Shown: piece by piece, positions 54,431-62,369 of the stretch
Position numbering within the stretch: position 1 is the first letter of the stretch
Layout of the letters: each line of letters begins with the position of its first letter
From: Aotus nancymaae
Taxonomy: Eukaryota
Reading direction: 5' to 3'
DNA length: 64,000 nucleotides
Assembly (NCBI RefSeq): GCF_030222135.1
Contig: NW_026988463.1
Location: 27,112,907 to 27,176,906, forward strand
The notes under the pieces: model-generated
Database searches by the model: none
What the model was told of the DNA's origin: nothing
What the model saw: only the letters and a program-made list of their open reading frames with translations
Position numbers and translations under genes: made by a program

Positions 54431-55221
54431 TGCGAGGATACGGGAACAGTGAGGCAGGCAGGACAGGGTGGAGGTGCCCCTACGAGGAAGGCAAGGAAGA
54501 TGGGGCAAGATGCGGGGAGGCTGCAGAAGCGGCGCAGGGTGGGGTTTCGAGAGAACCGAGCCTGCAGAAGGCAGCAGCAGAAACGGGCGCTGGAAGGCTC
54601 AAAAAAGGGGCCCTGGAAAGGACGAAGCGGGGACAGGAAAGGGAATTCCAAGGGGCAGGGCAGAGGCTGCAGGGCCGGCCTGGAACAGGAGGGGGCTGGG
54701 CAGAGGAGCCCGTGTAAACACGGGGTGGCCCACGCCCAGGATGAGGGACAGGTGCAGCTTCCATTCTCAACCTGGTAACAGCCACAGAGCTTGGGACTCC
54801 TCAGCCTTTCCGCAGCCGCATCACCCACCATGGCCTCAGGGCTGTGACGGGAGCAGGGAAGGATGCGGCTGGGGGCTTAGTGGCCACGGGTGTGGACAGA
54901 GGGCGGCATTCCAGTCTGGCAGTTGTTTGGGTTTCTAACGGGGCCTCTTCAAACATGCAGGAGCTATTCTGGGTTTGTACCGATTGGGAATTCCCCAGAG
55001 ACCTGAACTTGCGCTCCACAGCCGCGGGAGCCTTGGCCCCACCCTAAATGTGTGCTGCCGCCACTAGGGCTGCCCCTGGGGACGGCGGACCCAGAACCCC
55101 ACAGACACACAGGACAAAGTAAGGCTGGACTGACACCAGACCGGGAAAAAAACCCTTGGGAGTGGGTGGGGGCAGTTGCTTGGTGAGGGCAATTCATTCA
55201 ATCCAGAGCCAGAAACAGGAT

Positions 55222-55238: not shown

Positions 55239-56237
55239 GTAATGGGGTCCGCGCAAAAGGAGGGAGTGGAGGGTGGGGTACATGCAGGGGACACAGGAAC
55301 ACGATGACATGGCCAGGGCCACAGCTTCTTCTGTCGTGGGGAAGAGGGATGAAAAGACAAGACCAGGGCTGGAGCTGGGGTGGAAGAGGGGAGGGGGACA
55401 CTGGCTGCATTCCCCCACCCCCAGGAAGCACCTCTAGGCCCTGGACCCCTCGCTCACCCTGGCCCCTAAAACTCCATCTCTCCTCTGCCTCTGGCCCTCC
55501 TGGCTCCTCCTTCTGCTCCCCTGAACTTTTTCCCCTGACAGGTTCTCAAGTAGGACGTCGTTCAGGGCCTGACCCCAAACCCCCTACCACCTTATGAAGG
55601 TACAACCTTTGCGGGCCCTGCTTCTGCCCCTCCTCAAACCTCACCGCTTTCCCTCTTTGGGACAGAAGCTCTGATCTCCCTCCTTCCTCTCCTCCCTCCC
55701 CCTGGAAAAAAAAAAGAAAAAGGAAAAGAAAGCACCAACTCCCCAGGGAGGGGCAGCAGACAGCAGGGGGAGAGGATTGGAAGGAGAGTAAGAGAACCAT
55801 TGAGGGAAGAGGCTCACAAGTCCCTGGGAGGACAGGGCACGGGCTTACAGAGAGGAGAGAGGGTACGGGCAGTGGCTGCTCCTGTCCTCTGCCACCCCTG
55901 CCCACTGTCCAGGGGATTTCAACATAACCGAGGGGGCAGGTTTGTGTGGGGTCAGGTCTGATAGAAGAGAGGAGCAGGAGAAACAAATCGTTAAAACCTA
56001 GCGAATTCCCCTAAAACATTTCTTCCTCCTTTCCTTCCGGAGGCTCCTTGGTTGGTGGGGAAGTAGTGAGGAGTTGGTGGGAAAAGAGCGGGGAGAGGAG
56101 CCTGTACCAAGGGACTCTACTCCATTCTCCCCTCTCCCCCCCAACCAACTTGGAGCTCACCAGGGCTGGGAGGGAAGTGGCTGAGAGCTCACAGGCACCC
56201 CCTCTGCCCCGGAGAGGGAGCCCACAGCCGTGGGAGG

Positions 56238-56300
56238 AGCTGCTACTGCCGCCGCCGCAGCTGCCGCCGCCGCCGCCGCTGCTGCTGCTGCCGCCGCCAT
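56238..56300. repeat. MAZ: (GCC)n/(GCT)n trinucleotide repeat in the MAZ 3' UTR (GGC/AGC on the mRNA strand)
   Basis: GCTGCTACTGCCGCCGCCGCAGCTGCCGCCGCCGCCGCCGCTGCTGCTGCTGCCGCCGCC. Confidence 0.85.
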
Positions 56301-56651
56301 TGGACAAACCTCACCAGTACCTGCAGGAGAAACACCACAGATCACAGCGCAATCTGAATGGCAAAAGCCTTGCCCTCATCCCAGACCTTCCCAGCCTGCT
56401 TCCCCTGGGACACAGCCGTTGCTCACTTCCTATCTGGTCCCCAGAGACCTCAGCCTGCATCCTCACCCAGACAGAGAAGTTCTCAAGGGTCTTCCCTGTG
56501 CCTGGAAGTCTCCCTAGCCTGAGTGGCACATGGGCATCCCTTGCCTTCCTGAGATCCCCTATTGGGCCCTTTGAGCCCCCTTGTCCCCCACACCCCCCAT
56601 CCCGCCCCCCAGCCATGCCCCACGCCTTGCCTGGTGGGTGCGGGGTCCCCC

Positions 56652-56854
56652 TCAGCAGGTGGGCTGTGGCTGGGGGGCGTCTCCTGGGACAGGGGGGGCG
56701 GCCCCCCCCAGATGGGTCTGCATGTGGCCGGCCAGCTGGGCAGGGGTCTTGCAGTGCACGCTGCACAGCTTGCACAGGATGCGGTCAGCCCGCGGGGCCT
56801 GGAGCCCGTGGTCCTTCACCGCGTGGATGCGCAGGTATGCTGCCGTGGTGAAGC
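56652..56854 (-). CDS. MAZ: MAZ exon 5 coding part (GFTTAAYLRIHAVKDHGLQAPRADRILCKLCSVHCKTPAQLAGHMQTHLGGAAPPVPGDAPQPQPTC, stop TGA at 56654-56652)
   Basis: Acceptor AG at 56856-56855; the C-terminus is identical to human MAZ isoform 1. Confidence 0.9.
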
Positions 56855-57659: not shown

Positions 57660-57831
57660 CTTTGTTGCAGAGCTCACAGACATGGTGAGGGCCCTGGCTG
57701 TGCACCTTCATGTGGTCCGAAATATAAGCCGAGCTCAGCATCTTGCCACACACGTGACATGGCACCTTCTCCTCGTGTCGTACTGTGTGCGCCCGCAGCC
57801 GATCCTTCGTGGCGAAAGCTGCCTCACATTT
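57660..57831 (-). CDS. MAZ: MAZ exon 4 (KCEAAFATKDRLRAHTVRHEEKVPCHVCGKMLSSAYISDHMKVHSQGPHHVCELCNK)
   Basis: Acceptor AG at 57833-57832, donor GTACAT at 57659. Confidence 0.9.
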
Positions 57832-58108: not shown

Positions 58109-58172
58109 CTCACATTTGAAGGGCCGTTCTGTTGAGTGCACTTGTCTGACGTGACTGTTGAGGTGATCTGGC
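58109..58172 (-). CDS. MAZ: MAZ exon 3 (64 nt; RPDHLNSHVRQVHSTERPFKCE)
   Basis: Acceptor CCCCAG at 58174-58173, donor GTAGGA at 58108. Confidence 0.85.
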
Positions 58173-58576: not shown

Positions 58577-59424
58577 CGGGAGAAGCTCTTGCCACAGTGG
58601 GAGCAGTTGTAGGGCTTGTGTACAGCGCCGTCATGTGAGCGCACGTGGTAGCTCATGCGGTCCTTGCGCTTGAAGCGCTGTTGGCACACCGGGCACTGGT
58701 AGGGCTTCTCGTCCGAGTGCGACAGCTTGTGTCGGTTCAGGTGGTAGACGTCGCGGAAGGCCTTGCCGCACATCTCGCAGGCGTGGTTCTTCCGGATGCG
58801 CTTCCCCGAGGCGGTCGTGGTCACCACGCCACCGGCGGCCACTGCGGCCGCGCCGCCGCCGGCACCCGCTTCTCCCCCTCCCCCGCCGGCTCCGCTCAGC
58901 TGGGGCACGCTCAGGAGGCTCAGGGGCACCATGGTAGGCATCTTCATAGCACCCGAAGGGACCCGGCCGGCCTTGGCTCCCGTGTGGATGGCTTCGTGCC
59001 TCCGGAGGTTGTAGCCGTTCTTGAACTCCTTGGCGCAGAGAGCGCAAATATAGGGCCCCTTGCTCTTTGTCTTCTTCTCCAAGGCAGACGCGACTGGGGC
59101 CACGGCGACCGTCGAGGTTGGGGCTACGACGGCGGTGGCCGCCGCCGCGGCGATGGTGGCGGCGGAGGCGGGGGGCGCGGCCTCGGCCGCAGGGGCCGAC
59201 ACGGGTGGGGGTGGCGGAGGGGGCGCCGAGGGCTGCTTCAGGGCCGCTGTGTCCACCGTGGAGGCGGTGGCCGGAGCCGGGGGCGCGGCAGCGACGGCGG
59301 CGGCAGCGGCGGCGGCCGCAGCGGCGGCGGCGGACTCCTGGGCAGCAGCGAGCACAGGGAGCAAGTCCACCTGGAGGGGCTCGGCCGCCGGGGCCTGGGG
59401 CGTGGGCGGGGGCGCCGGCGCGGC
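58577..59424 (-). CDS. MAZ: MAZ exon 2 (AAPAPPPTPQAPAAEPLQ...poly-Ala...zinc fingers 1-3...HKPYNCSHCGKSFS)
   Basis: Acceptor AG at 59426-59425, donor GT at 58576-58575; 848 nt with reading phase preserved. Confidence 0.9.
59281..59335 (-). repeat. MAZ: GCN repeat encoding the MAZ poly-alanine tract (exon 2)
   Basis: (GCN)n; the minus-strand translation reads SAAAAAAAAAAAAVAAAPP. Confidence 0.85.
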
Positions 59425-59510
59425 CTGCAGAAACAAGGCGCAGAGTGGGCCGCGGGTGCCGGCGGGCGCGCGCCCCCCCGGCCCTGGCCGCCGCGGCGGG
59501 CCCTACTCAC

Positions 59511-59702
59511 CTGGAATGGACTCTGGGCGCAGCCCTGGGAGGCAAAGAAGCGGGACTGGAGCTCAGCCCCGACCTGCAGGGGGTTCTGGGCGTGACCCTG
59601 AGGTGGCGGGAAGGAGTTCATGAGGCCGCCCACCCCCCGGGAGTCCAGGCCCAGCACGGGGAAGGGGGGGGCCAGCAGCGTGCAAGGGAACACCGGGAAC
59701 AT
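59511..59702 (-). CDS. MAZ: MAZ exon 1 coding part (ATG at 59702-59700; MFPVFPCTLLAPPFPVLGLDSRGVGGLMNSFPPPQGHAQNPLQVGAELQSRFFASQGCAQSPFQ)
   Basis: Donor GTGAGT at 59510; 64 codons; matches the human MAZ N-terminus. Confidence 0.9.
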
Positions 59703-60220
59703 GGCCACGGCCGCAGCGGGGCCCCCGGGGCTCAGCGGGGGCCGGGGGCGCGAGCCGCGCGGGGCCCGGGCTCGGGGCGCCGCCCCCGGCCGGCCGGCCT
59801 GGGCCGCGCCGAACGCATGGCCCGCGGGCCGCCCCGCCGCCCGCGCACCCCGGCCGGCGGGAGGGAAGGAGGGCGCCTTGCGGGCCGCGGAGCGCCGCGG
59901 CGACGGCGGCGGCGACGCCCCCTGGGTGGGGGCGGGAGGCCCCGCGGGGCCGGGGCCGGGGCCGGGGGCGGGGGCCCGGGCGGCGGCGGCGGCGGCGGCG
60001 GTTGGAGCCTGGCGGGGCGGGGTGGGGGGAGCGAGGGAGCAGCCTCGGCCCCCGCCGCGCGCGCGCCCAGTCGGCGCCTCGGGGAGGGCGGGGGAGGGCG
60101 CGAGGGAGGGAGGGGGACAGCTGCGCGCGCACCGGGCGCGCGGAGGGGGGGTGGGACGGGAGGGAGGGCGGGCAGGAGGGGGTGTGGGCAGGGGGTGGGG
60201 GCGGGGGAGGGGGTTGTTAC

Positions 60221-60256
60221 CTGGAAGATGAAGCTGCTCCAGTTGCTGGGATCCAT
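60221..60256 (-). CDS. MAZ: MAZ alternative first coding exon 1A (ATG at 60256-60254; MDPSNWSSFIFQ), donor GTAACA, in frame with exon 2
   Basis: GCC-ATG-G Kozak context and a GT donor immediately after the 12th codon. Phase 0 matches the phase-0 acceptor of exon 2. Resembles a known human MAZ N-terminal variant (recalled from memory). Confidence 0.55.
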
Positions 60257-60596
60257 GGCGAAGGGAGGGAGGGAGGAAGGGAGGGAGGTGGCTCGCGCTC
60301 ACCCTGGGGCGGGAGGAGGAGGAGGCGGCGGTGGGGGAGGGGGAACCCGGGGAGGAGGCGCGCGGGGCGGGCGGGGGGAGGAGGAGGGTGGGGGGAGCGG
60401 AGCACACTGCGCGCAGGGAGGGCGGGCGGGGGGCGCGAGGACACACAAGAGGCTGGAGCGGGCGCGAGCGCGAGTGCGAGCGCGCGCGGGGCCAGCGGGA
60501 GGGGGAGGCGCGAGAGGACTTTGGCGGGAGGAGGGACGGGGGAGCCACCCAGCAGCCCGAGTCGCCCCGAGCGCGAGACCCCTGAGACGGCTGCTG

Positions 60597-60601
60597 ATTG
60601 G
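60597..60601 (-). promoter_or_regulatory. MAZ: CCAAT box (AGCCAATCAG on the minus strand) in the MAZ upstream region
   Basis: GCTGATTGGCT on the plus strand is an NF-Y consensus; it lies about 340 bp upstream of the exon 1A ATG. Confidence 0.45.
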
Positions 60602-60885
60602 CTGACGATGGCGCAGGTGGTGGGCGCGCGGGAGACCGGTGGCTTCTCTCCTCTTTCCCCCTCCAACGATTCCACCCCCCTCCCTTCGCCAGCGGCCGTT
60701 ATTTCGCGCGCACGCGCACAAGGCTGCCGTCGTTGCTAAGCGGGAGAATGGGGGAGCGCGCGTCGGGGGCACGGACAGGGCGGGGCTAATCCCTGAGCGC
60801 GCGCCCGCCTAACGGTTGCGCTCAAGCTTCGACTTTCGCTTTTTGCATCCTGCAGGCCACCGTCCTCCTCGCCCCGCTCCAGAGG

Positions 60886-60891
60886 TTTATT
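60886..60891 (-). promoter_or_regulatory. KIF22: KIF22 polyadenylation signal (AATAAA on the minus strand)
   Basis: TTTATT on the plus strand about 200 nt after the KIF22 stop codon. Confidence 0.65.
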
Positions 60892-61091
60892 TACAATCCT
60901 GCGCTGAGTGGGTCCCCGAAGATGGCGCCCAGCGGAGCCGTCGGCCGCACTGGCGGCCCACCCCGGGGCGGTCACATCCCGGTCCCGCCCCCGCAGCCCC
61001 AAAATTCAGGCGGAAGCACCAGAGCCAAAACTGTATTTACACAACACGGGCTTATACAAGGATTTAAAAAGGCGGAGTGAGGAAACGGCGG

Positions 61092-61139
61092 TCAAGACGG
61101 GTCACAGCGCTGGCCGGCGGCGAGACCCAGGATGTTCGC
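61092..61139 (-). CDS. KIF22: KIF22 last exon coding part (ANILGLAAGQRCDPS, stop TGA at 61094-61092); 3' UTR to about 60865
   Basis: Acceptor TTGCAG at 61141-61140; human KIF22 ends ...AAGQRCGAS. Confidence 0.8.
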   Translation of the reverse strand, partial: ANILGLAAGQRCDPS

Positions 61140-61228
61140 CTGCAACACAGGAAGGAGGGTGGGGACAGCGATGTTAGAAGGCCGCGGTGTGCAGAACAGG
61201 CAAAGGAGGGGCAGGGCTGTGACCTCAC

Positions 61229-61288
61229 CTTCAAGAAGGACTCCATCTGTTTCCCTGTTATGCCCTCCACGCGTTCCAGGTCCTCCAC
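61229..61288 (-). CDS. KIF22: KIF22 exon (VEDLERVEGITGKQMESFLK)
   Basis: Acceptor AG at 61290-61289, donor GTGAGG at 61228. Confidence 0.85.
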
Positions 61289-61367
61289 CTGGCGGGACAG
61301 GATCGGTAGGAGATGGTGTCTCGGGGGTGCCTGGTCTCCCCCATTCCCCACCCTCCCCCAGTCCTCA

Positions 61368-61637
<270 letters not shown>

Positions 61638-62369
61638 TTAGGGCTCCTCTGCCAAGACTAGCCCAGCACCAGCTACCTCCCCACGCTCCAGCCTCTTCCT
61701 CTCCTCAAGTGTCCCCAAAATCCTGCCCTTAGGTCACTCTGGGTTAATTCTCGTTATGCTACTAGTGAAAGAGAGGTACTACTTAGTACCAAGTAGTAGC
61801 ACCTTTCTCATGGAGTTACTGTGGCGGTCAAGTGTGTTAATGAATGTAAAGCACAAAATAAGCTATTAAATCTGGTCTCTCATCTCTAAAAAGGAAATAA
61901 GCTCTTTCAGAAGTACATGGGAGAATGTAATATGAATAAATGATACCTCCCTCAACCATCTGTTTTTCGGTAGTTGTAGTGGTGTTCAATTCTGGGCATG
62001 CTGGTGCGCGCGCATGTGTGTGGTTTCATTCTTGAGTGTTTAGGTCATCGTTCCCTAAGTCTTCCGTCTTAAGCTTGTAGATGGCAGAAGTCAAGCTACA
62101 CAGTGGACCTAGTTAAGTACCTACTGAGAGTAGCTATCAGGAAGGGAACACCCGCTCTGCTAGGTACATCCACATCACTGCCTTTCACGCTAAATGCCCT
62201 GCAAGGAGCCATCCATCGCCACATTCCAGGGGTAAGCAAGTTGAGGCCTGTAAATAGCTGGCGGCCATCACCCAGTGGGTTAACCCCAAGGCCAATGCTC
62301 CTCCCCCTAGAGCCTACTCCCCCTTACTTCTGGGGTCCAGGTGTAGCCTAAGCCCCCAGCTACTTTCAC

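Follow-up and report, generated by a model that had tools for sequence, protein, structure and literature searches.

Exon 1A of MAZ in Aotus nancymaae: a conserved first coding exon of the known SAF-3/MAZ-3 type, very probably spliced to an acceptor within canonical exon 1

The 64,000-nucleotide stretch of Aotus nancymaae DNA analysed here (hereafter, the window) carries, on its minus strand, a 12-codon exon of MAZ—exon 1A—which is very probably the first coding exon of the known SAF-3/MAZ-3 isoform, spliced from 60221 to an acceptor at 59597. This exon is already known as the published first coding exon of human SAF-3/MAZ-3; its use in the window species, together with its transcription start site (TSS) and choice of acceptor, is what we infer from other mammals. 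The original prediction had exon 1A spliced to exon 2 at 59424, replacing the canonical 64-residue N-terminus. With exon 1A joined to the acceptor at 59597, 29 of these residues (GHAQ…SPFQ) would be kept and only 35 N-terminal residues replaced.

Exon 1A and the architecture of the MAZ gene

Reading of the minus strand over 59000-61200 located an ATG at 60256-60254 within TTCGCC-ATG-G, with a purine at position -3 and a G at +4. The coding part of exon 1A (60221..60256; ATGGATCCCAGCAACTGGAGCAGCTTCATCTTCCAG) comprises 36 nt, i.e., this ATG and 11 further codons, which translate into MDPSNWSSFIFQ and end in phase 0 with base 60221. GTAACA follows directly after codon 12 (60220-60215), forming the phase-0 GT donor CAG|GTAACA. 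Upstream, an in-frame TGA is found 15 codons 5' of the ATG (60301-60299), within the conserved block CCAGGGTGAGCG, and no further ATG precedes that of exon 1A between 60848 and 60256 on this strand. The canonical MAZ ATG (59702) is located 554 nt downstream. The Kozak-type start, the 12-codon exon and its GT donor had thus been predicted correctly, in every coordinate and sequence statement. We also observed a block, CCCCAGGGTGAGCGCGAGCC, approximately 45 nt 5' of the exon 1A ATG (60312-60290, minus strand), which is kept in the window, in jaguarundi and in a murid-like contig; it resembles a 5' splice site (AGG|GTGAGC), holds the in-frame TGA and, judging from its sequence, may represent an alternative donor of a non-coding upstream exon.

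The model built for the whole MAZ gene, on the same strand, places the 64 canonical codons of exon 1 (MFPVFPC…SPFQ) at 59702-59511, followed by GTGAGT. The first 35 of these codons (MFPVFPC…PPPQ; 59598..59702) have counterparts, among the proteins compared, in mammalian ones only. The remaining 87 nt (59511..59597; GHAQNPLQVGAELQSRFFASQGCAQSPFQ), encoding the 29 residues GHAQ…SPFQ, are bounded by the acceptor cctcag|GGTCAC and the donor CAG|GTGAGT. In 1A transcripts these 87 nt form a separate internal exon; canonical transcripts have them as the 3' portion of exon 1. Exon 2 (58577..59424; AAPAPPPTPQ… to …CGKSFSR) opens with the phase-0 acceptor ctgcag|GCC GCG CCG, and is followed by exon 3 (58109..58172), exon 4 (57660..57831), the coding part of an alternative C-terminal exon of the MAZ-2/SAF-2 type (56652..56854; ending in …PQPQPTC) and that of the terminal exon of the MAZ-1/MAZ-3 type (56157..56320; ending in …SQPLPSQPW), with the mRNA 3' end near 55216. 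Two residues and the lengths of the poly-Ala tracts distinguish the MAZ coding sequence of the window from what we take to be the human one.

Two acceptors are available to exon 1A in this model, and both (59597 and 59424) have good pyrimidine tracts. Judged by its match to the splice consensus, the internal site aactccttcccgccacctcag|GGT CAC GCC, at 59598|59597 within canonical exon 1, has the features of a good 3' splice site. It separates codon 35 (Q) precisely from codon 36 (G) and is in frame with exon 1A. Use of this acceptor would yield a predicted product of 456 aa (…SQPW end) or 469 aa (…PQPQPTC end). The phase-0 match between exon 1A and the acceptor of exon 2, on which the original prediction was built, was likewise borne out: the 60221|59424 junction leaves the frame open, with products of 427 or 440 aa according to which C-terminal exon is used. 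As exon 1A can join in frame at either position, sequence alone does not decide between them.

Correspondence with human SAF-3/MAZ-3

The human MAZ (= SAF) gene has an isoform, SAF-3/MAZ-3, that arises from an upstream TSS under an alternative promoter and has a different N-terminus (PMC6340948, PMC12102611, PMC5622404); its primary description is Ray et al. 2009 (FEBS J 276:4276), as cited in the same three papers. Two promoters have been reported for the human gene, with SAF-1 and SAF-3 produced from two TSSs (PMC6340948). Three further elements of the original prediction—an alternative first coding exon that lies upstream and brings its own start codon, a human isoform annotated with such an N-terminus, and two promoters—find their counterpart in SAF-3/MAZ-3. 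Features expected of a SAF-3-type exon were found in the window as well: a start codon within ATGGATCC at 60256, upstream of the canonical (SAF-1) TSS; a peptide common to MAZ orthologues (MDPSNWSSFIFQ or a near-identical sequence, in P0016, P0141, P0018, P0023-26 and others); and a phase-0 GT donor right after codon 12, at 60221|60220. The exon 1A start is positioned approximately 380 nt upstream of the inferred SAF-1 TSS, an arrangement that mirrors human SAF-3.

The restriction map provides an additional link to the human gene. The start codon of human SAF-3 carries GGATCC (PMC6340948, methods); in the window, this BamHI site lies at 60254-60249, at the start codon of exon 1A, and is the only one in 59000-62200. 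The published promoter fragment, -1692/+277, was cloned via Bsu36I sites and cut with MluI at -1401 (PMC6340948). In the window, the two Bsu36I sites fall at 61568 and 59603, a spacing of 1965 bp compared with the published 1969 bp, and an MluI site at 61274; the downstream Bsu36I site (CCTCAGG) is the internal acceptor itself. Human MAZ-3 and the window thereby share both the start ATGGATCC…, with its BamHI site, and the flanking restriction map. Expression of human SAF-3 depends on the upstream promoter, since deletion of -1401/-595, equivalent to ~61274 to ~60470 in the window, abolishes expression of a SAF-3 reporter (PMC6340948).

The published material also speaks to the splice partner. 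The forward primer of the SAF-3 reporter, CATCTTCCAG|GGTCAC… (PMC6340948), matches the window over its first 16 nt only if 60221 is joined to 59597, a junction through which the human sequence can be obtained in the window. The endogenous SAF-3 amplicon was reported as 208 bp, against predicted lengths of 203 bp if the 87-nt segment is included and 116 bp if it is skipped, and the SAF-1 control amplicon as 271 bp, against 269 bp predicted (PMC6340948); the predictions are thus off by 5 and 2 bp from the published sizes. Human MAZ-3 has 454 aa (PMC5622404), i.e., 477-35+12, whereas a direct join of exon 1A to exon 2 would give 425 aa; the wording of the same source, "34 aa replaced by 13", does not by itself sum to 454. 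The corresponding product predicted from the window has 456 aa, and human MAZ isoform 3 is predicted to read MDPSNWSSFIFQGHAQNPL… under the SAF-3 model. SAF-3 is described in the SAF/MAZ literature as a stronger transactivator expressed in inflammation, and MAZ-3 mRNA as scarce in gastric tumours in the literature on MAZ-3. A full-text literature search with the exon 1A peptide returned nothing. Unlike the source of human MAZ-3, the window derives from a non-human primate, and it contains Alu elements: at least 11 in 10141-48675, two of them with a perfect match to the 36-nt 5' consensus. These elements by themselves identify the DNA as that of a primate.

Splice junctions in other mammals

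All the mammalian evidence found joins exon 1A to 59597, inside canonical exon 1, where the acceptor cctcag|GGTCAC is present and in frame and matches both the human primer and the spliced sequences of other mammals. Three homologue searches were run. The first, with exon 1A joined to exon 2 as the query, was dominated by poly-Ala/Pro words and gave 17 significant matches among 8000 candidates, including two proteins with a 1A start: P0016 (ENA), reading …MDPSNWSSFIFQ|GHAQNPLQ…SPFQ|AAPAPPP…, and P0001 (titi monkey), reading MDPSNWSSFVFQ|GHAQSPLQ…. The second was seeded with 72 N-terminal residues and gave 12 candidates; the third, with low-complexity stretches taken out of the query, returned MAZ proteins from across the vertebrates, to which cluster members were added. 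Every mammalian 1A record found reads FIFQ|GHAQ. Among these is the RefSeq model of MAZ isoform X3 from Peromyscus californicus (XP_052570623.1, P0141), which reads MDPSNWGSFIFQGHAQ… / MDPSNWGSFIFQGHAQNPL… and runs from exon 1A through GHAQNPL…SPFQ to AAPAPPP…, as in the contig L001 described below, with Gly at position 7 (NWGSF). Exact look-ups of six isoform models derived from the window produced no match, and the canonical controls were equally absent; the same was true, canonical controls included, for mouse-like, Peromyscus and human models with each of three N-terminal types, so that these look-ups carry no weight for or against either junction.

The internal acceptor was also compared as DNA in the window, in L001 and in the titi monkey sequence L002; the Fukomys sequence L003 is gapped over the whole 5' region, and that of jaguarundi (L004) right after the exon 1A donor. 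L001 (ERZ14425263 NODE_1111) is a 5.6-kb spliced, RNA-type contig with blocks equivalent to 61144-60220, 59600-59510 and 59427-59342 of the window, i.e., with the junctions 60221>59597 and 59511>59424, after which it loops back into the canonical isoform. Its exon 1A is identical to that of the window (36/36 nt), although the contig itself is a chimeric de novo assembly that runs through from KIF22 and loops between isoforms, and is trustworthy for local junctions only. Its 477-aa MAZ ORF matches what we presume to be mouse Maz, and the murid-like label rests on this assumption.

The titi monkey sequence is an intronless MAZ copy with the same two junctions (60221>59597 and 59511>59424) and a single substitution in exon 1A; its 5' end corresponds to window position 60270. 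An A11 tail immediately 3' of the MAZ poly(A) site, a flanking 13-nt direct repeat (AAAACTGAACAAC), frameshifts and stops, together with the lack of introns, identify it as a processed pseudogene derived from an mRNA of the 1A-GHAQ type. It is located at L002:5986-8145 (GCA_040437455.1, JBDJOS010000026.1). The protein record KAL0586802.1, labelled "Myc-associated zinc finger protein", is the product of this processed pseudogene, which carries internal deletions and stops.

Conservation of the 1A start across vertebrates

The peptide MDPSNWSSFIFQ is identical in 12 of 12 residues in turtles, tuatara and a lizard, and remains recognisable in sharks. In jaguarundi (L004, a genome of the cat family), exon 1A is kept with one substitution (S4G), along with its GCCATGG context and its GTAACA donor, the latter base for base; the exon ends at the same donor in L001 and L002. 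A 1A-type peptide starts MAZ in turtles, tuatara, lizard, crane, caecilians, frogs, salamanders, teleosts and sharks. In the sauropsid proteins (turtles, tuatara and Podarcis; e.g., XP_077663127.1 and P0023), the same 12 residues are followed by a homologous cassette of 29-30 residues, in the form MDPSNWSSFIFQ|(Q)SHTQNPLQVGAEIQSRFFASQGCTQSPFQ|AA…, with a NAGNAG-like Q/no-Q alternative at the cassette acceptor and no MFPVFPC-type start among the records. Turtle isoforms P0154-P0167 illustrate this alternative, with both FIFQ|QSHTQ and FIFQ|SHTQ on record. Some turtle isoforms start with MSL(Q)SHTQ…, a sequence that points, in reptiles, to an independent alternative first exon located 5' of the cassette.

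Outside these groups, the homologous first coding exon takes other forms. The crane (Grus americana) has MDPANWSSFIFQ|APPPPPPP…EPLPVDLLPVL; caecilians and frogs share MDANWSSFIFQ|TPPPPPAEPLQVELLPVL, and salamanders resemble frogs with an extra LGLQ; MDTSWSNFIFQ is internal to a longer predicted protein in lungfish; sharks have MDGTWSNFIFQ and close variants, and teleosts MDTSWSNFLFQ or MDAAWSNFLFQ. A shark VEZF1-like protein begins with MEAAWGAFIFQ, and human VEZF1 with MEANWTAFLFQ; the core W-S-x-F-[IL]-F-Q extends to sharks and to the VEZF1-like paralogue. In crane and the non-amniotes, the 1A-type exon is followed immediately by the exon-2 equivalent, and the GHAQ…SPFQ cassette is absent—the layout that had originally been proposed for the window.

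Taken as an evolutionary series, these sequences point to exon 1A as the ancestral first coding exon of the gene family and to its direct junction with exon 2 as the ancestral layout, with the 87-nt cassette as a probable amniote feature. The MFPVFPC start, seen in mammalian proteins only among those compared, appears to have been added in mammals through a promoter that lies within intron 1. On balance, we lean towards a scenario in which the MAZ-1 start is lineage-specific, having arisen through a promoter in intron 1 upstream of the amniote-specific cassette, while the 1A form is ancestral and shares W-S-x-F-[IL]-F-Q with VEZF1. If so, the isoform regarded as minor and inflammation-induced would carry an N-terminal motif some 450 million years old, and a cassette-skipping 1A-exon 2 product could survive in primates as an ancestral relic. 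Neither an ancestral 1A start nor a mammal-specific textbook start was found stated in the searchable literature, and a search on the MAZ/VEZF1 paralogues gave nothing relevant; the idea is only mildly new, being visible in public protein models.

Weighing of alternative readings

That exon 1A is instead spliced directly to exon 2 (60221 to 59424), skipping the 87-nt segment to give MDPSNWSSFIFQ|AAPAPPP… as the main 1A product or as a minor isoform, is an unlikely alternative. The open frame and the good pyrimidine tracts at 59597 and 59424 would permit it, and its presence in crane, caecilians and frogs, with equivalent exons in teleosts and sharks, indicates that such an architecture is functional and ancestral. 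The mammalian data, however, run in the opposite direction: the human primer, amplicon size and 454-aa length all include the 87-nt segment, as do the murid-like contig, the Peromyscus model and the titi retrocopy. Inclusion is further favoured by the segment itself, which combines a donor matching the consensus at 9 of 9 positions (CAG|GTGAGT) with a good, pyrimidine-rich acceptor. Moreover, no FIFQ|AAPAP sequence occurs among the mammalian proteins examined from the peptide-seeded homologue searches, in which coverage of mammalian isoforms was poor. Of the original expectation of a human isoform with this N-terminus and of a supporting junction, the former holds, whereas no mammalian record of a direct 60221-59424 junction was found in searches of limited reach. 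The splice partner of exon 1A in the window would accordingly be the acceptor at 59597.

Two other readings deny exon 1A its role as the start of an isoform. The ATG at 60256 might mainly act as an upstream ORF (uORF) in long unspliced leaders of canonical MAZ mRNA: its Kozak context is strong and, unspliced, it opens a 174-codon frame (60256-59732, minus strand) with a stop approximately 30 nt before ATG 59702, which could serve as a long uORF in such transcripts. Conservation, however, is confined to the 12 codons up to the donor and takes the form of a vertebrate protein N-terminus, the spliced form is on record in three mammalian lineages, and studies of MAZ-3 have worked with the expressed protein; the predicted N-terminal peptides of a translated 1A isoform begin MDPSNWSSFIFQGHAQ…. 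A pure uORF role was rejected in view of this conservation and of the spliced records, and we consider even a predominantly uORF function highly improbable. Still less credible is a functionless mini-ORF, running by chance from ATG to GT in a GC-rich CpG island. Although 36 nt is short, and the original prediction leaned partly on memory, a peptide that is identical in 12 of 12 residues from primates to turtles and a lizard, with a core reaching sharks and a VEZF1-like paralogue, already refutes such an origin—and the Kozak context and donor are conserved as well, and the isoform has been published.

Promoter choice and the genomic neighbourhood

In the SAF-3/MAZ-3 reading, transcription would start from an upstream promoter situated, within a CpG island, 3' of the KIF22 poly(A) site and 5' of 60257, as reported for the human gene. 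The putative 5'UTR of exon 1A and upstream (SAF-3) promoter region span 60257..60885 on the minus strand, from the KIF22 poly(A) signal to the 1A ATG, with a CCAAT at 60601. The first AUG met by such transcripts would be the one at 60256; after 12 translated codons, the donor 60221|60220 would be spliced to 59598|59597, as shown in other mammals. The 623-nt intron removed from exon 1A transcripts (59598..60220, minus strand), whose junction 60221|59597 is found in L001, in L002 and in the published primer, contains the canonical (SAF-1) promoter and TSS, the 5'UTR, ATG 59702 and the first 35 canonical codons—all of which would be taken out. The 87 nt of GHAQ…SPFQ would then become an internal exon, connected through its CAG|GTGAGT donor to exon 2 at 59424. 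Because this intron holds both the canonical promoter and its ATG, promoter choice would set the N-terminus, with MDPSNWSSFIFQ in place of MFPVFPC…PPPQ.

These results bear on how the locus should be annotated and studied. In this primate, MAZ should be modelled with exon 1A and with the 60221-59597 junction; that the exon runs straight into exon 2 should not be taken for granted. The 12-residue start is conserved and ancestral in MAZ, and apparently also in VEZF1. This suggests that functional studies of the MAZ N-terminus, and of the higher transactivation reported for SAF-3, should regard the 1A peptide as the conserved element.

The CpG island extends over 59400-61100, with 76% G+C and a CpG observed/expected ratio of 0.89, and the KIF22 AATAAA is situated at 60891, 635 nt upstream of the exon 1A ATG. 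Positions 1-2857 of L001, aligned to 63684-60220 of the window, comprise spliced KIF22 exons and the KIF22 3' end and continue unbroken through the intergenic region into MAZ exon 1A; this continuity reflects either KIF22-MAZ read-through or an assembly merge of overlapping transcripts. Exon 1A is flanked on both sides by a cluster of 14 GGGAGGG motifs (60082-60503, plus strand; CCCTCCC on the sense strand of the gene), with 80 such motifs in the whole window versus ~35 expected from shuffles. G3AG3 is the consensus binding site of MAZ. Together with the repression of the MAZ promoter by MAZ and Sp1, as cited in PMC6340948, this cluster would fit autoregulation of the gene. Over the same interval (60082-60503), the sense strand is extremely C-rich, with a GC skew of up to +0.59 on the plus strand.

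Between exon 1A and the canonical ATG, we further observed a (GCC)8-like run and a (GGCCCC)3-4 run (60000-59945, minus strand), where G+C reaches 89%; the jaguarundi and mole-rat assemblies have a gap at the counterpart of this repeat region. Finally, the putative canonical 5'UTR contains a 28-codon uORF, MRSARPRPAGRGRRPEPGPRAARAPGPR (59818-59732, minus strand), which starts in a GCCATGC context and ends approximately 30 nt before ATG 59702.
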